DNA from: a virus
DNA length: 64,000 nt
Strand: one strand, 5' to 3'
IMG/VR virus record: IMGVR_UViG_3300025438_000010
Span: 11,624 to 75,623 of that record
Shown: in pieces, positions 4,885-24,184 of the stretch
How the letters are laid out: the number at the start of each line of letters is the position of its first letter
Position numbering within the stretch: position 1 is the first letter of the stretch
Position numbers and translations under genes: made by a program
The notes under the pieces: model-generated
The model's database searches: none
What the model saw: the letters and a program-made list of their open reading frames with translations, nothing else
Told to the model about the DNA's origin: nothing

Positions 4885-5020
4885 TCAAGCGGCCCGGCTT
4901 GCAGACAGACTCTTTGAGGATATACAGCTGGCAAGGACACGAGACGAGCACATTCGTGTAACGGCTAGGGCTAATGAGGCTCGCGAGCTAGCCAACGGCT
5001 TGCAATTATTAATTAAATAA
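4865..5020 (+). CDS. 51-aa hypothetical protein
   Basis: Own translation MTQQIADQAARLADRLFEDIQLARTRDEHIRV... Confidence 0.55.
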   Translation: MTQQIADQAARLADRLFEDIQLARTRDEHIRVTARANEARELANGLQLLIK

Positions 5021-5076
5021 AATACTATGCTATTTTATTAATTAATAATTTGTTTGTCAAATCGACAGGAGAGGAC

Positions 5077-5175
5077 ATGAACGAACCTACAACCTGCTTC
5101 TGGTGCGATCACCCGCTGAATTCCGAGGGGATCTGCTCTCACTGCGCCAGCGATTTGCGTATACTAGATAAGTAG
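5077..5175 (+). CDS. 32-aa zinc-ribbon peptide
   Basis: MNEPTTCFWCDHPLNSEGICSHCAS..., two CxxC, GGAGAGG RBS. Confidence 0.5.
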   Translation: MNEPTTCFWCDHPLNSEGICSHCASDLRILDK

Positions 5176-5295
5176 TGTAGAAATAGACACTACCTGCACC
5201 GAAGGGGCTTACCTCCTTTCACCCTAGCGGTGTAGGGCTCAGAGAAGAGCTACTGAAGGCCCCCCGTTCTTCCCAGCGGGGGGTCTTCTTCTTTT
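5172..5295 (+). ncRNA. candidate small RNA with anti-Shine-Dalgarno loop
   Basis: Four consecutive hairpins; loop of the second is CTTACCTCCTTTC; the fourth is a GC-rich terminator followed by TTCTTTT. Confidence 0.5.
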
Positions 5296-5398
5296 ATTGC
5301 CAGGATTCAGAAGATCTGTCGAGACTTTCCGTGAGACGGAAAAGGTCCCCGTACAAAGTTAATTTTAAACTTGTACGGAAATGTGCTATAAATGAACT

Positions 5399-5545
5399 AT
5401 GACAGAAACAGAAGCACTACCCAGCATATTCGCAATATTTATTGTTGTTCCTACATTGGTATCCGCTTTCGTAATCATTTGGTTCTTTGGCCGTGCACAG
5501 ATGAAGGCGGATTACTACCCCGAGCACTGGAAAGATGTTCCGTAA
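5399..5545 (+). CDS. 48-aa single-TM peptide, probably leaderless
   Basis: MTETEALPSIFAIFIVVPTLVSAFVIIWFFGRAQ...; ATG 6 nt after TG-c-TATAAA; stop is the TAA of the first CCGTAA box. Confidence 0.5.
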   Translation: MTETEALPSIFAIFIVVPTLVSAFVIIWFFGRAQMKADYYPEHWKDVP

Positions 5546-5601
5546 AAAAATTTAACCGGGTGCTATATAATAAAAACACGACGGCCAGAAAGGAGAAAAA
5601 A

Positions 5602-5961
5602 ATGGCTACCACATATGAAGGGAAGGAATTCATTTTTACCTTCCCCGGTTCAGAGACAAACTACGATCTCAACATCTGGGATCGCAGGGGGTACGAGACC
5701 GAATACGCAGAGGAGGGCTGGGCTATCAGTGTCTATGAGATCCCATACATCGGCTCACCGTATGGCTCAGGCGAGTTCCGTGAGGACCTCAGCTTTGACC
5801 TCACCCCAGAAGAAGCCAAGAGCCTAACCCTGGGATGGGATCCGGCGCTCGGAGGGGACTACTGCCCGGACTCCGACTTCTGGCTTGATGTTCAGGGGTT
5901 CATGGACACCTACACGAACATCCCGGCTCGAGTACGCGAACTACTCGAGAACCTGCCCTAG
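5602..5961 (+). CDS. hypothetical protein (start moved to ATG 5602)
   Basis: AGAAAGGAG RBS downstream of array promoter. Confidence 0.75.
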   Translation: MATTYEGKEFIFTFPGSETNYDLNIWDRRGYETEYAEEGWAISVYEIPYIGSPYGSGEFREDLSFDLTPEEAKSLTLGWDPALGGDYCPDSDFWLDVQGFMDTYTNIPARVRELLENLP

Positions 5962-6042
5962 ATTGCTGGCGAGGACCTCCGTAAAAAACGACGGGGGTCC
6001 TTGCTACAATACAAATACAACGGTCCGAGAAAAGGAGAAAAA

Positions 6043-6285
6043 ATGGACTACATGTTAGAACAACCCGAGCCCCAGGCTATTCGGGAAGAAAAAAGAAACC
6101 TAGTTTGTTTCAACGACGACTGCGCCATGTTTGAGTCCGAGGTAGAGATTCTTGTAGAGATTGAATACTGGAGTGACACCGAGGCACGGTTCGATTGGGA
6201 GTGCGACTCCTGCCGAACAATGTACGATCGAGAGTTCAATCCGATGGATGACATCGATTGGGATTCCTACTACGAAGGGAGATAG
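6043..6285 (+). CDS. acidic zinc-ribbon-like hypothetical protein
   Basis: CFNDDC...CDSC; AAAGGAG RBS. Confidence 0.7.
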   Translation: MDYMLEQPEPQAIREEKRNLVCFNDDCAMFESEVEILVEIEYWSDTEARFDWECDSCRTMYDREFNPMDDIDWDSYYEGR

Positions 6286-6287
6286 TG

Positions 6288-6482
6288 ATGTATAACGGCA
6301 GGTATGGCACTGTTGAGTGCCTGGTGTGTGGGAAAGATATAGAGCCAGGATCGGAGGAGGCCGTAAGCCTTCACGACGGCGAGGATATCTCACCCGTTGC
6401 TCACCTATTCAGCTGGATGTGCGACAGCGATTGCGTTGAAGAATACGCCGACAACAATGAGTCAAGCTACTTCGAAGGGTAG
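6288..6482 (+). CDS. small Cys-containing hypothetical protein
   Basis: CLVC...CDSDC; GGGAG RBS, coupled to upstream gene. Confidence 0.6.
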   Translation: MYNGRYGTVECLVCGKDIEPGSEEAVSLHDGEDISPVAHLFSWMCDSDCVEEYADNNESSYFEG

Positions 6483-6561
6483 CTACCACGAGGGGCCTGT
6501 CCGTAAAAAACGGATGGGCCTCTCGCTATAATAAAAATGTCCGAACGAAAAGGAGAAAAAA

Positions 6562-7086
6562 ATGGGATTGGACATGTATCTATCAGTACGGAAATACGTC
6601 AGTGCAATTGATTGGAGAGGAGTTGACAAGCTTGGCCCGGAAGAGTCAATCAGCGATTACCCCAACCTTGACTACGCCGAGGTCACGGAACGGCTTGGAT
6701 TGAAGCCTTTCATCGCAAATGCGGCACACTCCGGCATGAACGTGACCGCAACCGCTGTCTACTGGAGAAAAGCTAATGCCATCCACAAGTGGTTCGTAGA
6801 CAACCTCGCTGACGGCGTGGATGACTGCAGACCGCTGTGGGTTTCAACCGACCACCTGAAGGAGTTGTTTTTTAACGTGTGCGAGGTATTAGCTAGCAAT
6901 AAAGACCCACAGGTAGCCGAGGAGGTTCTTCCATCAGAAGACGGGTTCTTCTTTGGCGACACCAGTTACGGTGAGGCGTACTGGGATGACCTGGAATACA
7001 CACAGAAAGCCCTAGAAAAAATCTTGACTCTGGCTGAGTCGGATGAGGGTAAGGCTGTGGACTTCGAGTATCAAGCCTCCTGGTAG
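6562..7086 (+). CDS. conserved phage protein of unknown function
   Basis: MGLDMYL...YWRKANAIHKWF...GFFFG...YQASW pattern recognised as a widespread phage family. Confidence 0.8.
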   Translation: MGLDMYLSVRKYVSAIDWRGVDKLGPEESISDYPNLDYAEVTERLGLKPFIANAAHSGMNVTATAVYWRKANAIHKWFVDNLADGVDDCRPLWVSTDHLKELFFNVCEVLASNKDPQVAEEVLPSEDGFFFGDTSYGEAYWDDLEYTQKALEKILTLAESDEGKAVDFEYQASW

Positions 7087-7199
7087 GCCTCAAGCGGAAA
7101 GACCCTCGGTGAAAGCCGGGGGTTTTTCTGTTTCCGTAAAAAAACAACAATAGGGGTTATATAATAAAAACATAACGACGGAGCTACGAAAGGAGAATC

Positions 7200-7916
7200 A
7201 TGAAGCTCAAGCGTTCCAAGGACCGGAAGGTCACCAATCTAGTCACACCGAACGGGAAGGCCCCGTCCATTGCTAACACCTTTGGACTACCAGCAGGTAA
7301 GGCCTACTCATGCCCCGGCGCGACGTCCATCTGTGAGAGTGTCTGCTACGCGGGCAAGCTCGAGAAGGTATACAAGAACGTCAAGGCGGTCCTGGTACAC
7401 AACTGGGAACTGCTGAAGGACGCGGATCTCGATGAGATGCGACGACTACTCACTGAGATGGTCGACGACTTCATCACGGACTGCAACCGACGGCAAGCGC
7501 CTAAGGACTTCAGAATCCACTGGGACGGCGACTTCTTCTCGGACACCTACGCTATGGCGTGGAGGATGACGATGGAGTCACGGCCCGAGGTCAACTTCTG
7601 GGTCTACACCCGGACCATGAGTGCGGCACGGTTGCTCAAAGGCACATCCAATCTGTCCCTGTACTTCTCGGCAGACAACGAGAACATGCCGATAGCGCTC
7701 ACGTTACGGCGTGAAGGGATACTGCTTGCCTACCTGGCGGATACTTTTCAGGAAGGTCAGGCACGGATGAAAGAGGCAACGGGCAAGCCCGGAGCCAAAT
7801 GCCCGGAGAACACTAAGCAGATCCCATTGATTAGTGTCAACGGCTCGGCATGCATGGTGTGCCAGCTATGTCCTAAGGGCAAGGCTGACATCGTATTCAG
7901 TGCCAGCAAGTCCTAG
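7200..7916 (+). CDS. GP88-like (radical-SAM-fold-related) protein
   Basis: CPGATSICESVCYA Cys cluster, FRIHWDGDF, FWVYTR, C-terminal C...CxxCxxC. Confidence 0.75.
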   Translation: MKLKRSKDRKVTNLVTPNGKAPSIANTFGLPAGKAYSCPGATSICESVCYAGKLEKVYKNVKAVLVHNWELLKDADLDEMRRLLTEMVDDFITDCNRRQAPKDFRIHWDGDFFSDTYAMAWRMTMESRPEVNFWVYTRTMSAARLLKGTSNLSLYFSADNENMPIALTLRREGILLAYLADTFQEGQARMKEATGKPGAKCPENTKQIPLISVNGSACMVCQLCPKGKADIVFSASKS

Positions 7917-8010
7917 CGGAGTCCCCCGGTGAGAGCCGGGGGTACTTCCGTAAAAAATAAAATTGCTTGGAGATATAATAAAGATAGCAACGACGAAAAG
8001 GAGCAAGACA

Positions 8011-8232
8011 ATGGAAACAACTGAGATGACAAATTTCTACCGGAAGCACTACGGAGTTTTGGTAGGGAGAAAAATAATCGCAATACGATCAATGTACCCC
8101 GAAGAGATGAAACTTTTTATGTGGTACGGAGACCCCGGTGTGGTTATTGAGACCGACAAGGGACTGATTGTCCCCTCGAGCGACCCGGAAGGCAACTCTC
8201 CCGGACAGCTACTGCTAGACGGATTCGAGTAG
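8011..8232 (+). CDS. hypothetical protein
   Basis: AAAAGGAG RBS; PSSDPEGNSPG motif. Confidence 0.7.
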   Translation: METTEMTNFYRKHYGVLVGRKIIAIRSMYPEEMKLFMWYGDPGVVIETDKGLIVPSSDPEGNSPGQLLLDGFE

Positions 8233-8318
8233 TCCGTAAAAAATTGGGGAGCCTCTCGCTATAATAAAAACAGATAGCGAGGGGCTTCCCTCAAAAAAAA
8301 CGACAAAAGGAGAATGAC

Positions 8319-8963
8319 ATGCCTAACTGGGTATCTAATCAAATAAATATCACGGGACCTAAAGAAGAACTCGATAGGCTCCAAAAGCAAGCCGCAACGC
8401 CTTACCAGACTAAATCGTCTGTACTCACCGAAGACGGATTCGAGTGGGTGGACGCAGAGAACCAGGAGGAACTTTCATTCTGGAACTTTGTCAGTCCCGA
8501 CGAATCAATCCTGGAGGAGTATTTTGGCCCGGAGGCTAACAAGACTCTGGAGCAAGCGCTTCGACACGAGACCAACCACTGGTACGACTGGAATGTCCGC
8601 AACTGGGGAGTCAAGTGGGACGCCAGCTATGTGGGAGTGACCCAAGTGTCTGACACGGAGATTGCCTACACCTTTGAGACACCGTGGGACGCAGTCGTTC
8701 CGGTATTCCTGAAGATGGTGGAGGAGTATCCTGCCCTTGACTTCGAGTACCGATATCTGGAGGAGCAAGGCTGGGGAGGGGAGCTTCACGCCTCAGAAGG
8801 TATCTACTGGATAATGGACGAGTGGGAGATTCCGGAGACACACGAAGACCGCGTGGACAAAATTGGCTACTGCCACTGTGCGGAGGTCGGCACGCGCGAG
8901 GAGGACATCAAGTACTTGTTCGACGATTGTCCCCCAAAAATGGTCTTGATGGCCAGCAAGTAA
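8319..8963 (+). CDS. DUF1281/YubB ferredoxin-like-fold protein
   Basis: MPNWVSN...WYDWNVRNWGVKWD...FETPW. Confidence 0.75.
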   Translation: MPNWVSNQINITGPKEELDRLQKQAATPYQTKSSVLTEDGFEWVDAENQEELSFWNFVSPDESILEEYFGPEANKTLEQALRHETNHWYDWNVRNWGVKWDASYVGVTQVSDTEIAYTFETPWDAVVPVFLKMVEEYPALDFEYRYLEEQGWGGELHASEGIYWIMDEWEIPETHEDRVDKIGYCHCAEVGTREEDIKYLFDDCPPKMVLMASK

Positions 8964-9020
8964 GATACTGGAGGGGGCGAGTAACGGCTCGCCCTCTCTA
9001 GTCCTAGAAAAGGAAGAAAA

Positions 9021-9296
9021 ATGGAAGAAGAAACAGAAACTATCGGCGAGGTCGAAAGAACTCTTCACTACTTCGCTGATGACGGTAACTATGGGTCTGC
9101 GGACGGACTTACGATCATGGAGTCTACCCATTGGGACGAAATTGATTGGTCAATTATTGAGGGAGCACCCGAGCACTTCCGCCCAATGGTTGCCCGGTTG
9201 ATTACAGAAAGCTATGAACCGGACGCTAATGAACAAGCCCTACGCGCTGAGTTTGCTAAGTACGGGGTTGACATTAGTGACTATGAGAAAGACTAG
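9021..9296 (+). CDS. acidic hypothetical protein
   Basis: ORF with AAAGGA RBS. Confidence 0.65.
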   Translation: MEEETETIGEVERTLHYFADDGNYGSADGLTIMESTHWDEIDWSIIEGAPEHFRPMVARLITESYEPDANEQALRAEFAKYGVDISDYEKD

Positions 9297-9479
9297 TAAG
9301 TAACTGGGGGGAATTGACTTGGGGGTTTCCCGTCGTTTCCTCCACGGTGTTGGTGGTCACCGTTATCAAAATCACTATTTTAGTTTCCGTAAAAAATGTC
9401 TGAGGTGGGAGATACAATAAAGACAACACAGCAACAAGCCCGTTGTTGTGAAAAAATGACGGAGTGAAAGGAGATAGCA

Positions 9480-9830
9480 ATGGCTATCGTCAGAAAGCGC
9501 AAGGTAAGCAAGGTTACGATTGTCGAGGACACCAAGACGGTCACCAAGACCGCCGTGGAACTTACGGACAGCGAGCAGGAAATCCTGGAGTCGTTTCTGA
9601 AGGCACGAACTGAAGAAACCGAAGCCAAGAAGGAGAAGGAACGCCTCTCCGCCCTGGTGAAGGACATTATCGGTGACGCTCAGGTCGCTCTGGTGAACGG
9701 CGAAGTCCGAGTGGAGTTGCTCCGCTACCCACGAGTGACAATCGACTCGAAGTTGTTGTTCGAGAGTTTCACCGAAGCCTACGAAGCCACGGCACGCCAG
9801 TCCGTGGTCACCCGTATCCAAGCCAAGTAA
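9480..9830 (+). CDS. hypothetical protein
   Basis: Array promoter plus AAAGGAG RBS. Confidence 0.7.
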   Translation: MAIVRKRKVSKVTIVEDTKTVTKTAVELTDSEQEILESFLKARTEETEAKKEKERLSALVKDIIGDAQVALVNGEVRVELLRYPRVTIDSKLLFESFTEAYEATARQSVVTRIQAK

Positions 9831-9886
9831 CACACGGGTCGGCTCCCCTCCGGGGGAGTCGGCTCACCCTAACGAAAGGAAACAAA

Positions 9887-10168
9887 ATGGGAAACATGAC
9901 GGCACGAGAATTAGCGTTTCTAGGTAATGAAGGATTAGGACTAGACACCGCTATCTCATTCCACCTTACGAGCAATCACTTTCCGCCGGTACCGACGATT
10001 ATGGTCGGCGCGTGTGTCGAAGCGATAGACAACGCTAATGAAGGCGAGTGGGACAAGTTAGTCCAACTACCAGAAGGTGTGGGGTACCGGGGAAGGACTG
10101 TCGCACCGACAAAAGCGATCATTGAGCAACACCACCTTGACTCATTCCTAGACGACACCGAGGACTGA
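9887..10168 (+). CDS. hypothetical phage protein
   Basis: HLTSNHFPPVP motif; AAAGGA RBS. Confidence 0.7.
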   Translation: MGNMTARELAFLGNEGLGLDTAISFHLTSNHFPPVPTIMVGACVEAIDNANEGEWDKLVQLPEGVGYRGRTVAPTKAIIEQHHLDSFLDDTED

Positions 10169-10280
10169 GCGACAAGGAAGCCCCTGAGAAATCAGGGGTT
10201 TCTTTGGTTCCGTAAAAAACTGAAGCGCACGGTTATACAATAGAAGCATACAGGGACAAGCCCTGGAAAAGGAGAACGAC

Positions 10281-10622
10281 ATGAGTGATGTAGTAATTAT
10301 CAAAACTGACGGTACTGTCGAAGCCCACAAGTTGTCCGGGGATTCAACCGCCGACTTCAACCTCATCAGAAACGCCGTCGAGGGCTTTGTGGAGCGAGTT
10401 CCTATCTCTGACTACACCCAACTGATGTGGGTGAACGAGGAGGGCAAGTTGCGTGGACTCCCCCACAACCCGAAGGCTCAGACCCTCTGGGACTCACAAT
10501 GGGGAGCCGGAACTGACCGGATTGTGGGAAATGTGGTCATCACGGGTGACGACACCGAAGAAGGCGAAACAGGCACTCTCCCCGAAGGAGAAGCCGAACG
10601 GCTAGTGGCGCTACTGTCCTAG
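10281..10622 (+). CDS. DUF3846 family protein
   Basis: VEGFVERV...MWVNEEGKLRGLPHNPKA...IVGNVVITG. Confidence 0.75.
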   Translation: MSDVVIIKTDGTVEAHKLSGDSTADFNLIRNAVEGFVERVPISDYTQLMWVNEEGKLRGLPHNPKAQTLWDSQWGAGTDRIVGNVVITGDDTEEGETGTLPEGEAERLVALLS

Positions 10623-10755
10623 CCGACACGGAGAAGCCCCTGCTACGGCAGGGGTTTCTTTGTTCCGTAAAAAATGTAAAGGCGTGGCTATATAATAAAA
10701 CTACTAGCCCAAACGGGTTAGTAAGACGGGAAACATAAAACGAAAGGGGCCAGAA

Positions 10756-11196
10756 ATGGCTAGAAGTATCGCAGTCCGTATCAAGACGGAGAAGGTTATA
10801 GCCTCGCTAGAAGCCTCACTTGAGAAGATGCAGCACGACAAGGAGAACGAGAAGCCACTCAGGGAGAAGTACGACAAGGAGTTGGAGGCTTGGACTCAGA
10901 AGGTCAAGAAGTACGCTCTCACCATGCCCAAGCCTAAGGACATGGACATGGTCGCGGTTGGGGGAGGCTACTACCACCGTATTGCCTCGGACAACCCTGA
11001 GGATATTGCTGTTCAAATAGTCCTTGCGGTTCCGGCTAATAAGGTTCCAGAACGCCCCGAGGCTCCTGACGCTGTTGCGGCTTGGCAGTACCGTGATGCG
11101 GTGGAGAACATTGAGAACGCGCTCCGGTTGCTCCGTATGACCGACCAAGAAGAAATCAGCACGGGTACTTACAGCAAAATTGCTCAGTACCTCTAA
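10756..11196 (+). CDS. hypothetical protein
   Basis: Cassette ORF between promoter and hairpin. Confidence 0.7.
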   Translation: MARSIAVRIKTEKVIASLEASLEKMQHDKENEKPLREKYDKELEAWTQKVKKYALTMPKPKDMDMVAVGGGYYHRIASDNPEDIAVQIVLAVPANKVPERPEAPDAVAAWQYRDAVENIENALRLLRMTDQEEISTGTYSKIAQYL

Positions 11197-11319
11197 CGGC
11201 TGGACAGCCCCTCACTACGGTGGGGGTTGTTCCCGTAAAAAATATCGGGCACGGTCTATACAATAAAGACATACCGACACCGAGTAAAAGGCTGGGTGCG
11301 GTCTACTGAGGAGGTAGTA

Positions 11320-11649
11320 ATGATTATCGAGAGTGCGGTCAGGGATAGTTCCCTGGAGTTGTACCTGGACAATGCTCACGGCATTGCCTTTGACACCTGC
11401 CACAAGATTTATGTCTTGATGGACAGCGAGCAGATGGGTCTGATGCGGGAGTATGAGTATGACCCTTTGATTTCTTCAGACGAGATGACACCTGCCGAGA
11501 TGTACGAAACGGTGGCTGGCTGGTACGAGGAGTCTTGCCAACTGCGGTTTATCCAAGCCGTCACCACAGCCCCAGATAACCCCAACGAGGGCTATGTAGA
11601 TATAGTTCCCCAGTTCCTACTGTTCAACGAGGACGAGGACGAGGACTGA
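11320..11649 (+). CDS. hypothetical protein
   Basis: GAGGAGG RBS before ATG 11320; IAFDTCHKIY motif. Confidence 0.7.
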   Translation: MIIESAVRDSSLELYLDNAHGIAFDTCHKIYVLMDSEQMGLMREYEYDPLISSDEMTPAEMYETVAGWYEESCQLRFIQAVTTAPDNPNEGYVDIVPQFLLFNEDEDED

Positions 11650-11743
11650 TAAGGAGAGTGCCCCTCTACGGAGGGGTACTTTCCGTAAAAAGTGGCGTGG
11701 TGCGCCGATACAATAAAGACACGGACAGCAAAGGAGGACAATT

Positions 11744-11926
11744 ATGTCTGAAAAAGTGACGGTGGCACACCTGCCTACCTGTAACTTCTGTACCAACCTG
11801 GCAGGATATGACGCTAGGACGGTGTTAGGCGCGTGGGCTTACCTATGCGAGGAACATTTCTACCCCATGACCGAGGGACGGCTTGGGACTGGCTACGGTC
11901 AGAAACTAATCCTGGAGGAGGCATGA
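11744..11926 (+). CDS. small zinc-binding phage protein
   Basis: CNFC...YDARTVLGAWAYLC..H...LGTGYGQ. Confidence 0.7.
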   Translation: MSEKVTVAHLPTCNFCTNLAGYDARTVLGAWAYLCEEHFYPMTEGRLGTGYGQKLILEEA

Positions 11927-12069
11927 TGGCAATAGTAGTTAGGCGCTACGGCGTTACACCAACACGCGCCGGTCTGGTATCGACCTGCGTGGAGTGTGGG
12001 AGAGTATTCGACCTCACCGATGAAACTGACGCTAACGAGTTAGCCTACGGACACGACTGCGAGGTGTGA
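11923..12069 (+). CDS. small zinc-binding protein
   Basis: CVECG...GHDC; GGAGGAGG RBS, ATGA overlap. Confidence 0.6.
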   Translation: MMAIVVRRYGVTPTRAGLVSTCVECGRVFDLTDETDANELAYGHDCEV

Positions 12070-12167
12070 GTGACACGGCACGCCCCCTCTCCGGAGGGGG
12101 TGCTGTCGTTGTCCCGTAAAAAATTGGGAGTAGTGGGAATAAAATAAAGGTATCAACGGGAGGAGGA

Positions 12168-12344
12168 ATGATGATATGTCAATACTGTAATGAGAACCCT
12201 GTCCGGGAAGGCTGGGCTATCACCTGCGCCGTGTGTACTTTCATGTGTACACGGTGCAAGGAGGACACACCCTACGAATTAGGAGTGTCCTGGGATAGGT
12301 ACTGTGACCCCTGCGGTGTTGCGGTGGCTTCTGTCCCATTCTAA
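12168..12344 (+). CDS. 58-aa double zinc-ribbon protein
   Basis: Own translation: CQYC, CAVC, CTRC, CDPC; GGAGGAGG RBS. Confidence 0.65.
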   Translation: MMICQYCNENPVREGWAITCAVCTFMCTRCKEDTPYELGVSWDRYCDPCGVAVASVPF

Positions 12345-12463
12345 GCGACTCCCCCTCTCCGGAGGGGGTTTCGCCGTTCCGTAAAAAACATGGAGGGGGG
12401 CTTATACAATAAAGACATGACGGGGGGACACTAGGGCTTTCCGCATAACCTGAGGAGGACACC

Positions 12464-12802
12464 ATGGGTGACCGTTCGAATATCGCGATTGTCTACCACA
12501 CCGGAGAAACTATCTACCTGTACGGGCATTGGCTCGGGCATGAAAGTCAGAGGATTGTCGCACGCGCAATTTCTGAGGGCAGGCGAATGGAAGACGAGTC
12601 TTATTTCGCTCGGATTCTTTTTAGCAAAATGATTGCTGAGGACATTGCCGGCGAAACCGGCTTCGGTATCGCACCGTATGAGGTAGACCAGGACTACGGC
12701 AATCCCACAGTTACCGTGGATTTTCGTGACCACACGGTGATGCACGACAACTGGGATAACGCTGTCCCGTTCGCTGACTACCCCCGGCTAGTACTGGTAT
12801 AG
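12464..12802 (+). CDS. conserved phage hypothetical protein
   Basis: MGDRSNI...IYLYGHWLG N-terminus. Confidence 0.7.
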   Translation: MGDRSNIAIVYHTGETIYLYGHWLGHESQRIVARAISEGRRMEDESYFARILFSKMIAEDIAGETGFGIAPYEVDQDYGNPTVTVDFRDHTVMHDNWDNAVPFADYPRLVLV

Positions 12803-12916
12803 CCTGACGGGAGCCCCTCACTTCGGTGAGGGGCTACCCCGTTCCGTAAAAAATTGGCTACGGCATGGATACAATAAAGACAACAGCAGGGGAAATACCC
12901 CTACGGGAGGAGAGTC

Positions 12917-13252
12917 ATGGATACGGCTACGGTAGTAGGATTGGTGGCTACTACACCACGATATGTAGAAACTATTGACGGGAAGCGTGTTTTATCTTTT
13001 CGTCTGGCGTGCCCTCAGAAGGGTTACGACAGGGACACCGGCGAGTGGGTGCCTAAAGACACAAACTGGTACACGGTGCTGTGCTTTGACGATGTAGCAA
13101 GCGACTGTGTCGACAGGGTTGGCAAGGGGAGTCGGATTGTTGTAGTTGGTAATCTGATGAAAGTCACAGATTGGTCTGCTGACAGCCCCTCGGGTACTTC
13201 GGTAGAAATACACGCCCACACCCTGGGTAACCTGGGGAAGAACATATCCTAA
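12917..13252 (+). CDS. ssb: single-stranded DNA-binding protein (OB fold, no acidic tail)
   Basis: TVVGLVATTPR...SFRLA...YDRDTGEW...TNWYTVLCF...KGSRIVVVG resembles actinobacterial SSB. Confidence 0.8.
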   Translation: MDTATVVGLVATTPRYVETIDGKRVLSFRLACPQKGYDRDTGEWVPKDTNWYTVLCFDDVASDCVDRVGKGSRIVVVGNLMKVTDWSADSPSGTSVEIHAHTLGNLGKNIS

Positions 13253-13344
13253 CGGTAACCCCCTCTCCGGAGGGGGATTACCCGTCTCCGTAAAAAATCA
13301 CACGGTGCTTCGGTACAATAAAGATATGGAAAGGAGGTCAGCAA

Positions 13345-13548
13345 ATGTCTGACATAAAATACCCTGAGGTGGAAGTAGAACTGGTAGGACAGGACGGCAA
13401 CGCGTTCGCTGTTATGGCAAGAGTGAGCAAGGCTCTCCGCCGGGCTAGTGTGGCTCAGCAGGAGATTGACGAGTACCTCAAGGAATCTACCTCTGGGGAC
13501 TACGACCACCTAGTGGCAACCGCCACCCGGTGGGTTACGGTTCACTAA
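13345..13548 (+). CDS. conserved small phage protein
   Basis: LVGQDGNAFAVM...SGDYDHL motif. Confidence 0.75.
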   Translation: MSDIKYPEVEVELVGQDGNAFAVMARVSKALRRASVAQQEIDEYLKESTSGDYDHLVATATRWVTVH

Positions 13549-13676
13549 CCCCACACGGCACTAGCCCCTCTTCGGAGGGGTTATTGTCGTCCGTAAAAAA
13601 TGCGGTGAGGACACCATACAATAAAGACATAGACAAGGAGGCACTAGAACTCTTTGCTATAACCTGAGGAGGAACT

Positions 13677-13898
13677 ATGTACGAGGTCGAGACCAGAATG
13701 GTCATAACCACACCACGGTGTCCCGAGTGCGGAGAGGCTGGCATTCTCCAAATCCCGGCAGACGGCTACGACCGCTGGGCAGAGGGTGCGCTTATTCAAG
13801 AAGCCTTTCCCAACCTTTCCCTAGCCCTTAGGGAACAACTGAAGACCGGCTATCACGGCGCTTGCTGGGATACGGCTTTTGGACCCGTCCCTTTTTAG
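13677..13898 (+). CDS. small zinc-binding actinophage protein
   Basis: CPECG...LIQEAFP...REQLKTGYHGACW. Confidence 0.7.
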   Translation: MYEVETRMVITTPRCPECGEAGILQIPADGYDRWAEGALIQEAFPNLSLALREQLKTGYHGACWDTAFGPVPF

Positions 13899-14027
13899 CC
13901 CCACACGGCAATTCCCCGGCTTAGGCTGGGGTTTTGTCGTCCCGTAAAAAATGAGGGAACACGGGAATATAATAAAGACATAGACACCAAGCAAAAGGCT
14001 TAGTGTCACTACCCTGGAGGAGTACCT

Positions 14028-14303
14028 ATGAGTACACGGGCAAAGGTAAGGGCAAAAGTCCTTGCAGATGGTGGGACCTTTGAGGAGGGCTACACCGGCT
14101 GGGCAAGCGACACCTACTGGGTCGAGGTAACACTCTCCGATTCAGAAACGGTGTGGGCTTGTGAGGCGACAGAGTACGACAGCCTCTGGACCCTGAGGGT
14201 CGAGCAAGAGGATAGCGAAACTCGCGCTCAGATGTGGAGCTATGTCTGGGACAAGGTACGCTTTCCCGTAGTTCGCCGTGATAGCTTCTCACAAGCTGTC
14301 TAA
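14028..14303 (+). CDS. hypothetical protein
   Basis: Cassette ORF, GGGAGGAG RBS. Confidence 0.7.
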   Translation: MSTRAKVRAKVLADGGTFEEGYTGWASDTYWVEVTLSDSETVWACEATEYDSLWTLRVEQEDSETRAQMWSYVWDKVRFPVVRRDSFSQAV

Positions 14304-14428
14304 CCCCCAAGCCCCTGTCAGAAATGGCAGGGGTTCCTGGGGTGCCGTAAAAAAATTCTATCGAAGGTCGTACAATAAAGACAACGGCACACGGGGTACG
14401 CCTGTGAGCCACTACCTGAGGAGGCACT

Positions 14429-14542
14429 ATGAGTGACAACCCTTTCGACAACCTGGACATTATCAACCAGGACGCGATTGACGCGATGGATGACGAAACC
14501 GTCAAGACGGTTTGGGAAATCCTTACCAAAGCCGGCTACTAG
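14429..14542 (+). CDS. 37-aa acidic peptide
   Basis: Own translation MSDNPFDNLDIINQDAIDAMDDETVKTVWEILTKAGY; GAGGAGG RBS. Confidence 0.65.
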   Translation: MSDNPFDNLDIINQDAIDAMDDETVKTVWEILTKAGY

Positions 14543-14599
14543 GCGAGAGAGGGCGGGGAAACCCGCTCTCTCCCCCTACCCCAACAGAAAGAGGAAAGA

Positions 14600-14827
14600 A
14601 TGTTAGAAAGAATTACACGGGTAAATTACTACTGGAAAGACACGGTAATCCCTGGAGATACTGACGCACAAGTAGTTATCCTGAACGATAGCGACAAGTA
14701 CGAACAAATGTCTAATGATGGAAGTTTCGATGAGCGTATCTGGTTCTACTTTCAGAATGAAGATGAGTTCCAACGAGCCTTTGACCCCGCTAACACGGAG
14801 TTCGAGTTCGTCCTCACCGGAGGATAG
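14600..14827 (+). CDS. hypothetical protein
   Basis: GAGGA RBS, followed by hairpin. Confidence 0.65.
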   Translation: MLERITRVNYYWKDTVIPGDTDAQVVILNDSDKYEQMSNDGSFDERIWFYFQNEDEFQRAFDPANTEFEFVLTGG

Positions 14828-14968
14828 GTTTTCCTCCCAGGGAAAAAGCACAAGCCCCGCCATTTCTGGCGGGGTTTTGTGTGTCCGTAAAAAGTTAGGG
14901 GACACGGGGATACAATAAAAACATCAGCACGGAACAAGCGGTGTTCTGTGTCTAACCCTGGAGGAACT

Positions 14969-15124
14969 ATGTATTACTTTGTTACGGTTATAGAAAAAGC
15001 CTCACGAGAGATTGTGGCGACTTATCTTGACGCCTTTGAGTCTGACGCTCACGAGAGGGCTCAGACCATTGGAACCATTGAAGGCTACGCGGTGTTCATT
15101 ACTAGTGGTGACCCACTCTCATAG
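14969..15124 (+). CDS. 51-aa hypothetical protein
   Basis: Own translation MYYFVTVIEKASREIV...; GGAGG RBS. Confidence 0.6.
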   Translation: MYYFVTVIEKASREIVATYLDAFESDAHERAQTIGTIEGYAVFITSGDPLS

Positions 15125-15250
15125 CAACTAGGGGAGCCCCAGCTTAGGCTGGGGTTTCTGCTGTCCGTAAAATTCGATCGACACGGACGATACAATAAAA
15201 GCACAGACAGGGACACAAGGTTTCTGTCCTAACCCTGGAGGATAGCAATT

Positions 15251-15439
15251 ATGCGTTCACACGATGGATTGGCAGAATGGGCTTTGGAACAAGCCACCAC
15301 ACGGGAGCAAATTGCTCACCACATCGAGCGTTTGCGCGATGATGCCCTGATGATTCACGACTACCCCGAGCAGGCTATCGCCTTTATCGAGGACGAACTC
15401 CGTGAGATTCGGGTGCTACTGGCTAGGGATTCAGACTAG
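15251..15439 (+). CDS. hypothetical protein
   Basis: Cassette ORF. Confidence 0.65.
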   Translation: MRSHDGLAEWALEQATTREQIAHHIERLRDDALMIHDYPEQAIAFIEDELREIRVLLARDSD

Positions 15440-15556
15440 CCAGACACGGAACCCCTCTCCGGAGGGGTTTCGGTCGTCCGTAAAAATCGATCGAAGGACG
15501 GAATACAATAAAAACATCAGCACGGAAATACCGGGCGATTGCTGGGAGGAGTGGCT

Positions 15557-15763
15557 ATGCCCACTTTGGTTGTCACGGACACCAACAAGATTGGTGTCGA
15601 TGGTTTGGTGGAAAGGCTTGCCGACCACATCATTATGGTAGTCGATAGGCGCGGGTATGGTGAGCAGGACAATGTCCACACCATCACGCTTGCCGACACC
15701 ATTCGCAACACGGAGGCGCACGGGCTTGCCTGTCGCCTAGGGTTTCTCGCCCACATCGAGTAG
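15557..15763 (+). CDS. hypothetical protein
   Basis: GGGAGGAG RBS before ATG 15557. Confidence 0.65.
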   Translation: MPTLVVTDTNKIGVDGLVERLADHIIMVVDRRGYGEQDNVHTITLADTIRNTEAHGLACRLGFLAHIE

Positions 15764-15893
15764 CCCTGCCCATACTGTCCCCTCTCCGGAGGGGATAGTG
15801 TGCGTTTGCTGTCCGTAAAATTCGATCGAAGCACGGAATATAATAAAGACACAAGCACACGGGAACCCCTGTGGCTTACCTGAGGAGGAACTA

Positions 15894-15977
15894 ATGAGTG
15901 AAAATATGTGTTCAGGCTGTGGCGATATCTGCCGGGCAAGTGAATCAAAGTGCGGTATCTGTAGAGGGGGGTGGTGA
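15894..15977 (+). CDS. 27-aa Cys-rich peptide
   Basis: MSENMCSGCGDICRASESKCGICRGGW; GAGGAGG RBS. Confidence 0.55.
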   Translation: MSENMCSGCGDICRASESKCGICRGGW

Positions 15978-15980
15978 GAG

Positions 15981-16157
15981 ATGGGCATCACGGAAATGTT
16001 CCAACTGATTCGCCAAGTCTGGTCAGACTCTATGTCAGACAATGGCGCTATCTGGGAACGCTCTAACGCGGAACTACAGAATGCTAAGGCTAACTACCCC
16101 GACCTGTACGAAGAAGCCCTGGCTATGGCATACGAGGCGAGTGTGAATCAACGATGA
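15981..16157 (+). CDS. 58-aa hypothetical protein
   Basis: Own translation; fills the gap and overlaps the next gene by ATGA. Confidence 0.55.
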   Translation: MGITEMFQLIRQVWSDSMSDNGAIWERSNAELQNAKANYPDLYEEALAMAYEASVNQR

Positions 16158-16357
16158 GCCAGACACCAGACACGGCTTATGGGGTAACGCTCAGTTTCAC
16201 ATTCCACGAGCCACGGAACAAGACACGGGAAGAAGCCGAGCGCTTTATCAACGAGTATGTGAGCAGACTCGCCGAGAATGACGAGAGTGACCTACCCGAA
16301 GTCCGATGGGACGATGTGGAGTGGAACATCGTGGAACTACTGCCAGAAGCACAGTAA
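16154..16357 (+). CDS. hypothetical protein
   Basis: Coupled ORF ending before hairpin. Confidence 0.6.
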   Translation: MSQTPDTAYGVTLSFTFHEPRNKTREEAERFINEYVSRLAENDESDLPEVRWDDVEWNIVELLPEAQ

Positions 16358-16486
16358 GCCACAAGCAAGCCCCTGGCGAGAGCCGGGGGTTTTGCTGTCC
16401 CGTAAAATTCGATCGAAGCACGGAATATAATAAAGACATAGCACAAGGGCACAAGGTCCTAGTGCTCTAACCCTGAGGAGAAAGAA

Positions 16487-16807
16487 ATGCTGAAAGAGAA
16501 ACTGACCACACTGCCGGAGTTGTACAGCACGGACGAGACGAAGGGCGACCTGCCTGCTGTTTATGTGTTCACACCAGACGCTGGAGCGACCTGGGTGCTT
16601 TGGGAGTACAGCCCCGAAGAAGGACTGGCGTTCGGGCTGTGCGACCTGGGCTTGGGCTTTCCCGAGATGGGATATGTCTCAGTCCCCGAGTTGGAATCAC
16701 TACGCGGTAAGTTTGGCTTGCCTGTCGAGGTAGACACCAGCGTCACCACACGGTTCCAGGGCTACGAGAAGGCTGGAGTGTCGACCCCTGAGTACCTGAT
16801 GGCTTGA
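16487..16807 (+). CDS. DUF2958 family protein
   Basis: FTPDAGATW...FGLCDLGLGFPEMGYVSVPEL...GLPVE.D. Confidence 0.8.
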   Translation: MLKEKLTTLPELYSTDETKGDLPAVYVFTPDAGATWVLWEYSPEEGLAFGLCDLGLGFPEMGYVSVPELESLRGKFGLPVEVDTSVTTRFQGYEKAGVSTPEYLMA

Positions 16808-16916
16808 GAGCCGTACCCCCCAGCCCCCACTCCGGTGAGGGTTGGGGCAGTGTGCTCGTAAAATTCGATCGAAGCACGGGTTATACTAAAAACATCACAA
16901 GGGAAAGGAGACAATA

Positions 16917-17069
16917 ATGTCTTACACTTACAAAATAGTGTTTGTGATAATCACCCTGGGAGTGGTACTCTCTTTCCACGACACCTACTGGCCTTGGGCT
17001 ATGGTTCCTCTGGTGCTTTCGGCACTGGTTGGCGCTATTGGGCTCAGGCTCGGGGGTCGAGGAAAATAA
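16917..17069 (+). CDS. 50-aa two-TM membrane peptide
   Basis: Own translation MSYTYKIVFVIITLGVVLSFHDTYWPWAMVPLVLSALVGAIGLRLGGRGK; AAAGGAG RBS. Confidence 0.6.
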   Translation: MSYTYKIVFVIITLGVVLSFHDTYWPWAMVPLVLSALVGAIGLRLGGRGK

Positions 17070-17211
17070 GTTTTCCTCCCAGGGGAAAAGGCAGACCCCC
17101 TACTTCGGTAGGGGGTTCTGTCATTCCGTAAAAAAGACATAGCACGGAGAATATAATAAAGACATAGACAGGGAGACAAAAGGGCTTTCTGCTATAACCT
17201 GGGAGGTCATT

Positions 17212-17421
17212 ATGGCTAAGCAGTTTCGAGTCCTCGCAAGCAAGTCGGGCTTCAAGACGTTCGACTTCACTTATGACGCACACGAGGAGTCATACGCTCG
17301 CAAGGTCGCTAACACACTGAGCGATGAAAATTGGTCAGTGTGGTTTGAGACCCTCGATGACAAGCACCAGAGTGCGGTCATCAACGACCTAGACTTTGTC
17401 TTCGGCAAGACACAGTTCTAA
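17212..17421 (+). CDS. hypothetical protein
   Basis: Cassette ORF, GGGAGGT RBS. Confidence 0.65.
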   Translation: MAKQFRVLASKSGFKTFDFTYDAHEESYARKVANTLSDENWSVWFETLDDKHQSAVINDLDFVFGKTQF

Positions 17422-17554
17422 GGCGCACGGCAGACCCCTGGCTTCGGCTAGGGGTTTTGTCGTTCCCCGTAAAATTCGATCAACACGACTTGTAGAATAG
17501 AGATATCACAGAGAGACACTAGGGCTTTCTGGATATCTGGGAAGGAAACAAATT

Positions 17555-17746
17555 ATGTATCAGGTAAAAATCTTTACACACAGAGATGCCTCGCTCTTCG
17601 CCGAGTCTGAGACGTTCCAGACTAGGGAGGAAGCCGATGCCTACGCCACGTCTGTTGGCACGGGAGAGGGCTACTGGACCGAGATTCACCACTCGCAGGC
17701 GGTGTGGAGCAACTTCACATCACACGAGAGGCTTGCCCACCAGTAA
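17555..17746 (+). CDS. hypothetical protein
   Basis: Cassette ORF. Confidence 0.65.
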   Translation: MYQVKIFTHRDASLFAESETFQTREEADAYATSVGTGEGYWTEIHHSQAVWSNFTSHERLAHQ

Positions 17747-17869
17747 GCCCTCACCCCAGGACCCCACTTCGGTGGGGCTTCTGGCATTCCGTAAAATTCG
17801 ATCGACCCTAGGAATACAATAAAGACATAGACAGCAGGGAAATGCCCTGTGTCTACCTGGGAGGCACTA

Positions 17870-18091
17870 ATGGCTCACAACTACAAGGTCAATGGCTGGT
17901 TCGGTTCTACCACGGCAGGGTGGCGTATCGCCCTGGAGCCTGCTTTCTTCGAGGACATCGAGGAGGCACGGCTCTATGCCCAGGGACTCCACCTAGCCAA
18001 TCAGGAGGCTAACACGGAAGCCTACGAGGTCGAGGTCTTCAGACTTCGGGAGCGAGGTCTTGCTCTCCGAGTCCTGGAGTACAGCGCCTAG
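17870..18091 (+). CDS. hypothetical protein
   Basis: GGGAGG RBS before ATG 17870. Confidence 0.65.
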   Translation: MAHNYKVNGWFGSTTAGWRIALEPAFFEDIEEARLYAQGLHLANQEANTEAYEVEVFRLRERGLALRVLEYSA

Positions 18092-18341
18092 GACTACCCC
18101 AGGGACCCCACTTCGGTGGGGTTTCTGGAGTTCTTGCGCCGTAAAAATCCCGGAGTGAGATTGGTACAATGGAACCACACCACAAGGGAGCACAGGGCTC
18201 CTCGCGGAGCTCTCCACGAGAGCAAGCTCTAGCTCATCACCAGGACCCCACTTCGGTGGGGTTTCTGGCGTTTATAGGTTTTTACGATAAAGGTGTGTAG
18301 GGTAGTGGCAACTAACTAATATTTATTTCTAGGGGGGAATA

Positions 18342-18800
18342 GTGGCTAATCCAGATACGGACTTACAAGGGGTAGGGGTCTACTTAGAACAAAGATCCCC
18401 TAACAGACTGACCGGAGCTACTCACCAGCTGTTTATTTTTCCGGAGGGCTATACGCCTACACTTCAAAGGATTGTCCCTAAGGTTTTCCATAGGCATCTC
18501 AACAGGTACGCCCCACGGAAGAACTGGATCTGTGCGCCATTACACCTTAACGAGGTTGACTTTTCTGATGAGGAAACTGTGGCTGAGTTACTACTACCTC
18601 CGCTGGCTCGAGCTGTATGGGGAGAGTACACACTGGTTGGGAAGCCACTACTCTTCGAGGTATCAAAGAAGGACATGTTCGAGGTTGCTAGGAGAAAACT
18701 ACCTACGCGGATTAATTTAAAGATAAAGACAATGCGGAGTGCTCACGGCTACCCAGAATCTGTAGTCGAGATCGAGAAGAAGGAGGAAGCAGATGGTTGA
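18342..18800 (+). CDS. hypothetical protein
   Basis: 152-aa ORF overlapping the ATPase start. Confidence 0.65.
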   Translation: MANPDTDLQGVGVYLEQRSPNRLTGATHQLFIFPEGYTPTLQRIVPKVFHRHLNRYAPRKNWICAPLHLNEVDFSDEETVAELLLPPLARAVWGEYTLVGKPLLFEVSKKDMFEVARRKLPTRINLKIKTMRSAHGYPESVVEIEKKEEADG

Positions 18801-19845
18801 TGTAGCACGGGATGGTGTAGGTAGGTTCCAGGGCCCGGTAAAAGGCTCAAGGGCAGTTACTGAGCTCGAATCATGGGACATCTTGGTTGATATCCTTAAA
18901 CAGAGCTCAGACGAGGCTGTGGCCAAGAGATTACTTGGTGAGGTCCCTGGAGATGGAAGATACATCCCACGGAAGCCTAAAGGCTCCGGGATGTCACAAA
19001 AGGAAAAGAAGTTAATGAATATTGATGCTCTAGAAGGCCACACCAGCTACGAGAGGCCAAATGGGGATCTCTACTACAGCAGACCCTGGGGAGCTCACGC
19101 GGATGTCGAGGTCCTGAGGAAAGCCAGGGAAGCCACGGCTTCTGGCTCTGGCTCGTCGCTGTTTGCCTTGCTCTATGGATCACCAGGGTGTGGCAAGACT
19201 GCACTGGTCGAAGCGGCGTTCCCGGATGTTTATACGTTGATGGGAACTGGCGACACTGAGGTTGCTGACCTGGTTGGTGGTTACATCCAGAATGACGATG
19301 GTGGCTTCGAGTGGGTTGATGGTGATCTGTTGAAGGCTGCAGAAAATGGAGCTGTCTACTTCATCGACGAGATTGGGTTGATTGACCCCAAGGTTCTTTC
19401 AGTCGTGTACGGGCTGATGGATGGGCGGCGAGAGCTTTCTGTTACTGCCAACCCCCAACGCGGAACCATTAAAGCTCATCCCAACTTTTATGTGGTGGCT
19501 GCAACAAACCCCAATGCTCCTGGCGTGCGGCTTTCAGAGGCGCTGCTGTCACGCTTCACGATGCAGGCAGAGATGACCACGGACTGGGGACTGGCCAAGA
19601 AGTTAGGTGCCTCGGTCCGAATCGTCACTGCCGCCCAGAACCTGGCTAAGAAGCAGAGCTCGCGTGAGGTGTCTTGGGCACCTCAGATGCGAGAGCTCCT
19701 GGCGTTCAGGGATGTGTCAGAGCTTTATGGAACTGATTTTGCGATCTCTAATCTCCTGGCTTTGGCTCCAGAGATGGATCGTCCAATGGTTGCAGATGTG
19801 TTGACCAGGGTCTATGCTGAGGACCACCGACCAGCGAGGATTTAA
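18793..19845 (+). CDS. MoxR/CobS/CbbQ-family AAA+ ATPase
   Basis: Walker A GSPGCGKT, Walker B YFIDE, AATN sensor, EALLSRF Arg finger. Confidence 0.9.
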   Translation: MVDVARDGVGRFQGPVKGSRAVTELESWDILVDILKQSSDEAVAKRLLGEVPGDGRYIPRKPKGSGMSQKEKKLMNIDALEGHTSYERPNGDLYYSRPWGAHADVEVLRKAREATASGSGSSLFALLYGSPGCGKTALVEAAFPDVYTLMGTGDTEVADLVGGYIQNDDGGFEWVDGDLLKAAENGAVYFIDEIGLIDPKVLSVVYGLMDGRRELSVTANPQRGTIKAHPNFYVVAATNPNAPGVRLSEALLSRFTMQAEMTTDWGLAKKLGASVRIVTAAQNLAKKQSSREVSWAPQMRELLAFRDVSELYGTDFAISNLLALAPEMDRPMVADVLTRVYAEDHRPARI

Positions 19846-19846
19846 G

Positions 19847-24135: not shown

Positions 24136-24184
24136 TTTGTTTCCTTTCCCAGGTAGCTTGGCCTTGTGCCTTGCTGATGTTTCT

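Follow-up and report, generated by a model that had tools for sequence, protein, structure and literature searches.

Which transcription complex reads a promoter in which a consensus primary-σ -10 hexamer is coupled, at an unvarying distance, to a box that is not the canonical -35 element? The question is raised by a 64,000-nucleotide (nt) stretch of viral DNA (bases 11624-75623 of the linear 75,623-bp IMG/VR virus record IMGVR_UViG_3300025438_000010, referred to below as the window), the plus strand of which carries, at 5540-18272, an array of 28 terminator-promoter-leader-open reading frame (ORF) cassettes. The array is likely to consist of terminator/promoter cassettes akin to the promoter-stem-loop (PeSL) cassettes of T4-type phages, to belong to an early hyperplastic region, and to be transcribed by a host SigA-type RNA polymerase (RNAP) with CCGTAAAA as a -35 substitute. 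What is new is the box and its rigid geometry; the promoter/terminator cassette architecture, which is PeSL-like, was already known.

The box and its fixed distance from the -10 element

The heptamer CGTAAAA occurs 38 times in the window as compared with an expected 7.4 ± 3.2, and none of 100 shuffled sequences reaches 38. Twenty-eight of these copies lie on the plus strand at 5541-18146, each followed by TAnnnT exactly 18 nt after the box (that is, the hexamer starts 26 nt after the first C). A preliminary description of the locus had reported 28 copies of (C)CGTAAAA with a hexamer 26 nt from the start of the box and no variation in spacing; number, spacing and positions are all correct. A motif search of the whole record, which that description had proposed together with a search of relatives, finds no further copy of the box in 75.6 kb with one mismatch allowed.

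The box is CCGTAAAA in 27 of the 28 copies and TCGTAAAA in one. The -10 hexamer is TACAAT in 15 promoters and TATAAT in 10 (25/28 between them), with TAAAAT, TATACT and TAGAAT occurring once each; A at -11 and T at -7 of TAnnnT are present in all 28. A position-specific tally generates the consensus tTCCGTAAAAAa-N15-A-TAYAAT-AAARAC-A(+1), with conservation extending over -39 to -29 and -13 to +1. (Setting the hexamer at -12 to -7 places the box at -38 to -29 and a C-A step at -1/+1.) The TGn of extended -10 promoters is absent from the 28 promoters in the same tally.

The resemblance of the box to TTGACA is limited to at most three of six positions, the key G being absent, and a simple σ70 consensus scan detects 0/28 promoters, there being no TTGACA-like -35 element at 16-18 nt. 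The claim that the box occupies the -35 position without being TTGACA is substantiated by a sister promoter on the minus strand (24150-24215; TTGACA-N19-TATAAT, with an array-like discriminator and a hairpin leader), whose TTGACA, at 24215, has the same offset as CGTAAA in the array. By position, therefore, the box would be a -35 substitute. The minus-strand region 23100-24340 also contains a 74-amino acid (aa) gene and its terminator, tandemly duplicated under two different promoter modules, one of which is of TTGACA-N19-TATAAT type with an array-like leader.

The 15-nt spacer cores are no more alike than random sequence (about 30% identity among 21 promoters), yet their length is constant in 28/28. 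Other distances in the same modules vary: leaders measure 16-55 nt from the predicted +1 and the hairpin-to-box interval 3-19 nt. Invariance of the 18-nt gap across essentially random spacers, in modules whose other distances are free, argues that box and -10 element are read by one complex; indels appear to be tolerated elsewhere in the module, not between these two elements.

A spacer sequence, TTCGATC(G/A)A, is common to seven promoters (20-24, 26 and 27) that flank unrelated ORFs and probably form a recent subfamily. The tetranucleotide GATC is missing from 10118-18300 except at +10 of these seven promoter spacers and is under-represented phage-wide (163 observed, ~250 expected). The pentamer CACGG is distributed asymmetrically at 5500-18300, with 58 copies on the plus strand and 9 on the minus strand; its sites are in promoter spacers, in 5' flanks of terminator stems and in leader hairpins, and extended terminator stems account for them only in part.

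Anatomy and gene content of the cassettes

The repeated regulatory module comprises ~130-150 nt, and modules align with each other over 50-80 nt. Directly ahead of 23 of the 28 boxes (those of cassettes 4, 5 and 8-28) is a GC-rich hairpin with a tetraloop (-20 to -32 kcal/mol) and a T-rich tail, by its structure the predicted terminator of the preceding unit. Leaders end in AAGGAG or GGAGG ribosome sites, and most of those from cassette 6 onward open with a stable 5' stem-loop. One to three ORFs of 27-238 aa (~35 in total) are carried by 27 of the 28 cassettes, much as the preliminary description had it (promoter-ORF-hairpin cassettes with strong ribosome-binding sites and small, unrelated ORFs); no paralogs are found within the array. 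Related loci were fetched by way of the AAA ATPase encoded in a conserved operon that bounds the array (18342-21595, plus strand; a 152-aa ORF, a MoxR-like AAA ATPase and a VWA protein). They number 59: 58 IMG/VR loci with 59-75% identity in the ATPase, and phage DSL-LC01. Sixteen of 34 array ORFs have no homolog in these loci; approximately half match related-phage proteins at 30-66% identity, which argues that the ORFs are real genes.

The cassettes are as follows (each promoter is specified from box to predicted +1, and all are on the plus strand). Promoter 1 (5540-5578) would drive ORF 5602-5961 (119 aa), promoter 2 (5979-6017) ORFs 6043-6285 and 6285-6482, and promoter 3 (6501-6539) ORF 6562-7086 (174 aa, phrog_7971). 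Promoter 4 (7134-7172) precedes ORF 7200-7916 (238 aa, Pfam GP88), and promoter 5 (7948-7986) precedes ORF 8011-8232 (73 aa), homologs of which are found in 17 related loci. Promoters 6 (8234-8272) and 7 (9387-9425) each serve two ORFs, 8319-8963 (DUF1281_C/Api92-like) with 9021-9296 and 9480-9830 with 9887-10168, respectively. Promoter 8 (10210-10248; ORF 10281-10622, DUF3846) opens an 8.2-kb insertion relative to the gene order of relatives. It is followed by promoter 9 (10665-10703; ORF 10756-11196), promoter 10 (11233-11271; ORF 11320-11649), promoter 11 (11683-11721; ORFs 11744-11926 and 11923-12069), promoter 12, with its TAAAAT hexamer (12114-12152; ORF 12168-12344), promoter 13 (12379-12417; ORF 12464-12802) and promoter 14 (12844-12882), which heads a 111-aa ORF of the SSB family (12917-13252).

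Single ORFs follow promoters 15 (13288-13326; ORF 13345-13548), 16 (13591-13629; ORF 13677-13898) and 17 (13942-13980; ORF 14028-14303), two follow promoter 18 (14345-14383; ORFs 14433-14606 and 14600-14827), and one follows promoter 19 (14885-14923; ORF 14969-15124). The TTCGATCGA-spacer subfamily includes promoters 20 (15165-15203; ORF 15251-15439), 21 (15478-15516; ORF 15557-15763) and 22 (15813-15851; ORFs 15894-15977, 15981-16157 and 16154-16357). Promoter 23 (16400-16438) is identical to promoter 22 over 38 nt and precedes a DUF2958 ORF (16487-16807). The one TCGTAAAA box is that of promoter 24 (16856-16894; -10 hexamer TATACT; ORF 16917-17069). The remaining ORF-bearing cassettes are those of promoters 25 (17126-17164; ORF 17212-17421), 26 (17467-17505; -10 hexamer TAGAAT; ORF 17555-17746) and 27 (17789-17827; ORF 17870-18091).

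Promoter 28 (18139-18177), which has a divergent discriminator, GGAACC, heads a cassette without an ORF. Its predicted transcript of ~90 nt (18177-18272, plus strand) is structured (minimum free energy -42.7 kcal/mol, z = -3.85), ends in its own terminator and has no match in Rfam; it is a candidate phage small RNA. The terminator of cassette 28 is a near-duplicate of the terminators at 17756 and 18100. Rfam and tRNA scans of the window found nothing.

The domains recognised in the array by Pfam are GP88, Api92-like DUF1281_C, DUF3846, SSB and DUF2958. Early establishment or anti-defence regions of phages typically encode such families, as do the leading regions of plasmids, and their presence favors an early role of the array without proving it. 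Pfam and PHROG scans of ~55 ORFs identify no helix-turn-helix (HTH), σ or RNAP-binding domain.

Taken together, these features would make the array a chain of 28 expression cassettes, each complete in itself and linked to the next by a copy of one regulatory module, arranged in the order intrinsic terminator, two-part promoter, leader with a protective 5' stem-loop, and strong Shine-Dalgarno site. Host RNAP bearing the primary (SigA-type) σ would transcribe the array through TAYAAT, with the CCGTAAAA box at -38 to -29 replacing the -35 element and being read together with the -10 element by one complex. Each cassette would yield a short, insulated and probably abundant early transcript, and the products would be small proteins of establishment or anti-defence type (SSB, DUF2958, DUF3846, Api92-like, GP88). 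The repeated modules would at the same time offer stretches of homology at which recombination could add, delete and move cassettes, in the manner of the PeSLs of T4-like phages.

The phage and its host

Actinomycetia phage DSL-LC01 (129 kb, Dishui Lake) has a portal protein 70% identical to that of the present phage; identity is 57-62% with the portals of Microbacterium phages Pumpernickel, Zooman and A3Wally, and 47% with those of Arthrobacter phages Mimi, Racecar and Atuin. This similarity to actinobacteriophages points to an actinobacterial host, as the preliminary description had supposed, and the source would be an uncultured actinobacteriophage, a salt-lake siphovirus akin to DSL-LC01 and Pumpernickel. 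Twenty-four salt-lake DNA runs contain the sequence (98-100% of sampled words) and are possibly the source samples; no RNA run is listed among the sequencing runs that hold it. CheckV estimates the record to be 57% complete, ~43% of the genome being missing.

Pfam and PHROG scans show that the record also encodes M23 peptidases (candidate lysins), an r1t-type holin and NrdB. A polyvalent protein of 4527 aa (29575-43158, plus strand), located between portal and protease, combines an RNase T-like exonuclease, a UvrD-like helicase and two ArdC-N + MPTase modules. Homologs of the large terminases of DSL-LC01 and Pumpernickel are not found in the 75.6-kb record, and the gene presumably resides in the missing part of the genome. 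(In those two phages the terminase gene is just upstream of the portal gene; here either the order differs or the gene lies within the missing 43%.)

Promoters of related phages

Nearly every related lineage has a stereotyped promoter of its own, repeated 10-28 times around the AAA ATPase-VWA operon. An extended -10 promoter, CCTGATATAAT(A/T), is found in several lineages spanning 48-61% GC, and a spacer box combined with an extended -10 element, TCTAAAGnnGTTATAAT, constitutes another type; further lineage-specific promoters are TTCCAGAGtTTnTATAAT, GGAcTGTATAAT, cGGTATAATA and TGCTATCAAGG. The lineages closest to the phage of the array use canonical TTGACA-N17-TAnnnT promoters. The CCGTAAAA box itself is in none of the related loci examined. 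Two scans of 2.9 million IMG/VR contigs for the correctly spaced box retrieve only single chance matches in unrelated contigs, and megablast of the array against 50,697 phage records gives no match.

The repeated promoter of DSL-LC01 is gATTCTAAAGatGTTATAATwGAATCA. Approximately 22 copies of this extended -10 promoter, each within the inverted repeat GATTCT/AGAATC, are present at 23600-40650 of DSL-LC01, and the layout suggests that the inverted repeat is an operator overlapping every early promoter. The paper on DSL-LC01 makes no mention of promoters or terminators.

GTAAAAA repeats of four relatives (L007, L012, L022 and L053) were considered as copies of the same promoter and rejected: most of them belong to ribosome sites (GGAGGTAAAAAATG) or are boxes that precede TTGACA promoters by varying distances, and are not -35 substitutes. 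In L012, L022, L053 and L058, boxes of the form (G/C)GTAAA(A/G), such as GGGGTAAAAAttt, GAGGTAAAAA and AACGTAAAGAAtGTGTAC, are found in the interval from terminator to TTGACA promoter, at no fixed distance, and may constitute a conserved regulator site related to the array box.

Probable shuffling of cassettes

Breakpoints of indels of at least 100 nt were located by chained blastn alignment of six pairs of related loci with 80-95% identity. Of 78 breakpoints, 22 fall within 25 nt of the promoter repeat of the lineage; random placement predicts 3.5, with a maximum of 12 in 5000 simulations. Comparison of L043 with L044 provides four clean cases in which repeat-cassette-repeat in one locus corresponds to a single repeat with identical flanks in the other, which is the PeSL signature.

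Gene order tells a similar story. Genes g8319-g9021-(g9887)-g18342-ATPase-VWA are contiguous in L053, L012, L007 and L009; here 8.2 kb with cassettes 8-28 (21 cassettes) separates g9887 from g18342. The modules of these cassettes are the most uniform of the array, and few of their genes have homologs in the relatives, where these occupy other places, for the most part downstream of the ATPase. Contigs that cover the array in four runs are nearly clonal. They differ by few single-nucleotide polymorphisms, including C-to-G at -38 of promoter 10 (C at 11233, G in three other samples), and break at promoters 22 and 23, which are identical. A role of the repeats as recombination points is plausible. 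This part of the preliminary description stands as far as the indels at promoter repeats of related pairs and the insertion of 21 cassettes are concerned; in the four samples the array is stable, with no gain or loss of cassettes under way.

What reads the box?

That host RNAP transcribes the array is argued by TAYAAT, which is the primary-σ consensus -10 element. Domains of σ70 region 2 or 4, WhiB, AsiA (PF09010) and MotA (PF09114) are all absent from the 57%-complete 75.6-kb record. Five near-complete relatives contain no σ region 2, and for region 4 only sub-threshold HTH matches; no RNAP is annotated in bases 1-100,000 of DSL-LC01. With no phage σ or RNAP found and a consensus -10 element, host SigA-RNAP is the likely enzyme.

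How this enzyme deals with the box is less certain. Canonical TTGACA-N17-TAnnnT promoters in this phage and its nearest relatives imply that the host σ reads TTGACA; a box of different sequence implies a different contact. Since the host σ evidently reads TTGACA and the box matches it at no more than three of six positions, contact of the box with an accessory DNA-binding factor or with a remodelled σ region 4, in the manner of a class-II activator or of T4 MotA/AsiA, is favored over direct recognition, although by analogy and at somewhat under an even chance. It is possible, if rather doubtful, that a dedicated phage factor (a small early or virion-delivered protein) binds the box and redirects host SigA-RNAP to the 28 promoters.

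Several considerations weigh against the PeSL-like, SigA-dependent interpretation as a whole. Predictions of where transcripts start, whether they are early or middle, and how active the promoters are come from the DNA sequence. Promoters with only a -10 element are common in actinobacteria, as transcription start site maps of Mycobacterium show, and the box could accordingly have a regulatory function instead of belonging to the core promoter. The record, which lacks 43% of the genome, yields no candidate for a protein that binds the box. The contigs of the four runs contain no cassette indels or joints at promoters, and the case for motif-mediated shuffling is made by relatives and by synteny, IMG/VR providing no close relative with the same box.

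Host RNAP might instead read the box directly, as an unusual -35 element or UP-like A-tract contacted by σ region 4 or the α C-terminal domain, in which case the array would be immediate-early. This is a serious proposal, if on balance an unlikely one. The array genes look like the earliest-acting ones (SSB, DUF2958, DUF3846) and should therefore not depend on phage proteins; the -10 element is consensus, TTGACA can take the same offset in the sister promoter, and Pfam and PHROG scans of the record find no activator gene. The box itself speaks against direct reading, with its three or fewer matches to TTGACA and its missing key G, in a phage that, like its closest relatives, uses canonical TTGACA at 17 nt. 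An invariant block of 8-10 nt, moreover, exceeds what a weak -35 element or an A-tract needs.

A second alternative separates the box from the promoter: promoters would be of the -10-only kind and the box the operator of a phage repressor or shut-off factor, comparable with the stoperators of cluster A phages, that silences the array at the middle/late switch. Like stoperators, the sites are asymmetric, point one way and are placed in short intergenic gaps. A 30-bp palindrome, CCGTACAAAGTT..AACTTGTACGG, at 5349-5378, with half-sites CCGTACAA that resemble the array box, and CCGTAC sites near 25031 look like operators of one protein, and the DSL-LC01 promoters are embedded in the inverted repeat GATTCT..AGAATC. 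A repressor site is not, however, required to stand exactly 18 nt from a -10 element in 28/28 copies with random spacers, and no repressor-like HTH protein is found in the record by Pfam; the proposal is accordingly regarded as improbable.

Recognition of box and -10 element as the -35 and -10 elements of a phage-encoded or alternative host σ would account for a bipartite promoter with rigid spacing, and 43% of the genome is unseen. The late consensus of phage SPO1, CGTTAGA-N-GATATT, has a similar -35 element and counts in favor of such a σ. The TATAAT/TACAAT hexamers are nevertheless primary-σ consensus, and the searches for σ domains described above (regions 2 and 4 in the record, region 2 in the five relatives) came up empty, although very divergent phage σs could escape the models. 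These considerations make a dedicated σ very unlikely.

That the repeats are not promoters at all, and are recombination or transposition sites (integron attC-like, or miniature inverted-repeat transposable elements, MITEs) that merely resemble promoters, is scarcely credible: they do bound cassettes, and indels in relatives do break at such repeats, but every copy has a consensus -10 element that puts the predicted start 16-55 nt upstream of a strong ribosome-binding site, no copy is oriented against the genes, the hairpins have perfect GC stems, tetraloops and T tails and are not attC-like, and Pfam and PHROG find no integrase or transposase in the region. An integron gene-cassette array was rejected on similar grounds (every cassette comes with a promoter, the hairpins have the perfect form of terminators, and no integrase is found in or near the array). 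Readings of the repeat as a MITE or as an NtcA/CRP-type site were ruled out on anatomy.

Comparison with known systems

PeSLs of T4-type phages are modules of a stem-loop terminator and a strong early promoter, conserved over ~100 bp; they crowd a hyperplastic region rich in small ORFans, where cassettes are gained, lost and exchanged by recombination from module to module (PMC2839356, PMC4122927). The array shares with them the composite terminator-promoter module and the dense hyperplastic small-ORFan region, and cassette indels are seen here in relatives and by synteny. It differs in belonging to an actinobacterial siphovirus rather than a T4-like myovirus, and in that the hairpin is always upstream of the promoter, with rigid spacing. 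PeSL promoters have a σ70 -35 element with an AT-rich upstream region, in place of which the array has CCGTAAAA; this lack of a canonical σ70 -35 element appears to be the one PeSL trait missing from the array, and the interesting part.

In layout and logic only, the two-part promoter resembles T4 middle promoters, in which a MotA box at about -30 is combined with a σ70 -10 element and transcription proceeds by σ appropriation through AsiA and MotA. Common to both is a host-type -10 element with a phage-specific box replacing the -35 element at fixed distance. The array box differs in sequence, is located at -38 to -29 rather than being centred at -30, and is not accompanied by a MotA or AsiA homolog.

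The SPO1 host-takeover module, as Stewart et al. are said to have described it in 1998, reportedly contains about two dozen small early genes with many strong promoters and terminators. The array is likewise a cluster of small, probably early genes punctuated by predicted strong promoters and terminators. The early promoters of SPO1, in contrast, are canonical σA promoters, and its module is situated in the terminal redundancy.

Asymmetric stoperators of 13-14 bp in cluster A mycobacteriophages are co-oriented with transcription and repressor-bound, and are not tied to promoters. The array boxes share the co-orientation; in distinction to stoperators, every one is locked 18 nt from a -10 element, and no repressor is identified. 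Other cultured actinophages also have repeated intergenic motifs, such as the 18-bp motif of Cluster EC and the inverted repeats of Clusters EG and O (PMC7302621, PMC4351075). The motifs of all these actinophages (EC, EG/O and cluster A) resemble the array box in being short, repeated 5-35 times in short intergenic gaps and often in one orientation; the box differs in being locked to a consensus -10 element at an invariant distance and paired with a terminator, which makes a promoter the obvious reading, and in being more densely spaced (28 in 12.7 kb).

Counterparts in related phages are the arrays of DSL-LC01 (OQ999401) and the 58 IMG/VR contigs, which occupy the same place beside the AAA ATPase-VWA operon and have the same architecture, with indels at promoter repeats. 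Their promoters are of the extended -10 (CCTGATATAAT), spacer box plus extended -10 (TCTAAAGnnGTTATAAT) or TTGACA types, and none has CCGTAAAA.

The array entrance and other candidate control sites

At the entrance to the array, an AT-rich island contains back-to-back canonical promoters: TTGCAA-N17-TACTAT on the plus strand (5000-5034), of SigA type and the only canonical plus-strand promoter near the array, and TTGACA-N17-TAAAAT on the minus strand at 5060. Behind the plus-strand promoter is a 32-aa mini-ORF (5077-5175, plus strand) with a four-Cys zinc ribbon, CFWC...CxxC, of which weak homologs are present in the closest relatives (L053, L009 and L012). It is a candidate for a box-related factor, nothing beyond that. 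ESM Atlas returns only unnamed or weak zinc-ribbon neighbors for this mini-ORF and for the first cassette protein. Structured RNA is found within 5000-5290, after the back-to-back promoters, and a strong terminator with a 14-bp stem (5255-5288, plus strand) closes the entrance unit.

The palindrome at 5349-5378 is upstream of a TGcTATAAA promoter, and an ATG follows 7 nt after that -10 element. The arrangement suggests that the next ORF (5399-5545; a 48-aa membrane protein) is read from a leaderless mRNA. Its stop codon falls inside the first box.

At 24400-25040, ~650 nt of non-coding DNA with C-rich repeats (CCCCACCCC), at least five CAATGTCT-like repeats and T-runs separates the minus-strand block from a plus-strand block starting at 25043; possible roles for the region are those of an origin, of a packaging site and of a control region. 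At 25031 is a promoter, TGTACAAT, that appears to be leaderless and has further CCGTAC sites ahead of it. Weak leads to a CCGTA-binding protein are furnished by the palindrome at 5349-5378, the CCGTAC sites near 25031 and the (G/C)GTAAA(A/G) boxes of relatives.

Significance

With the array, modular shuffling of the PeSL type, familiar from T4-like myoviruses with Gram-negative hosts, would be extended to aquatic actinobacteriophages of a large group, in which closely related phages employ sharply different and internally invariant promoter types. Its cassettes offer a collection of candidates for early anti-defence or host-takeover genes, and its promoters, terminators and leaders are potentially strong orthogonal parts for actinobacterial engineering.

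Recognition of the -35 region in actinobacteria is poorly understood. Compact, rich in information and non-canonical, the CCGTAAAA-N18-TAYAAT promoter could bring to light a new way in which promoters are recognised in these bacteria. Should a dedicated phage factor turn out to read the box, it would be the actinophage counterpart of σ appropriation in T4; the promoter dialects of the ~58 relatives would then be co-evolving pairs of factor and box, by which cassette pools are held private while shuffling is retained.

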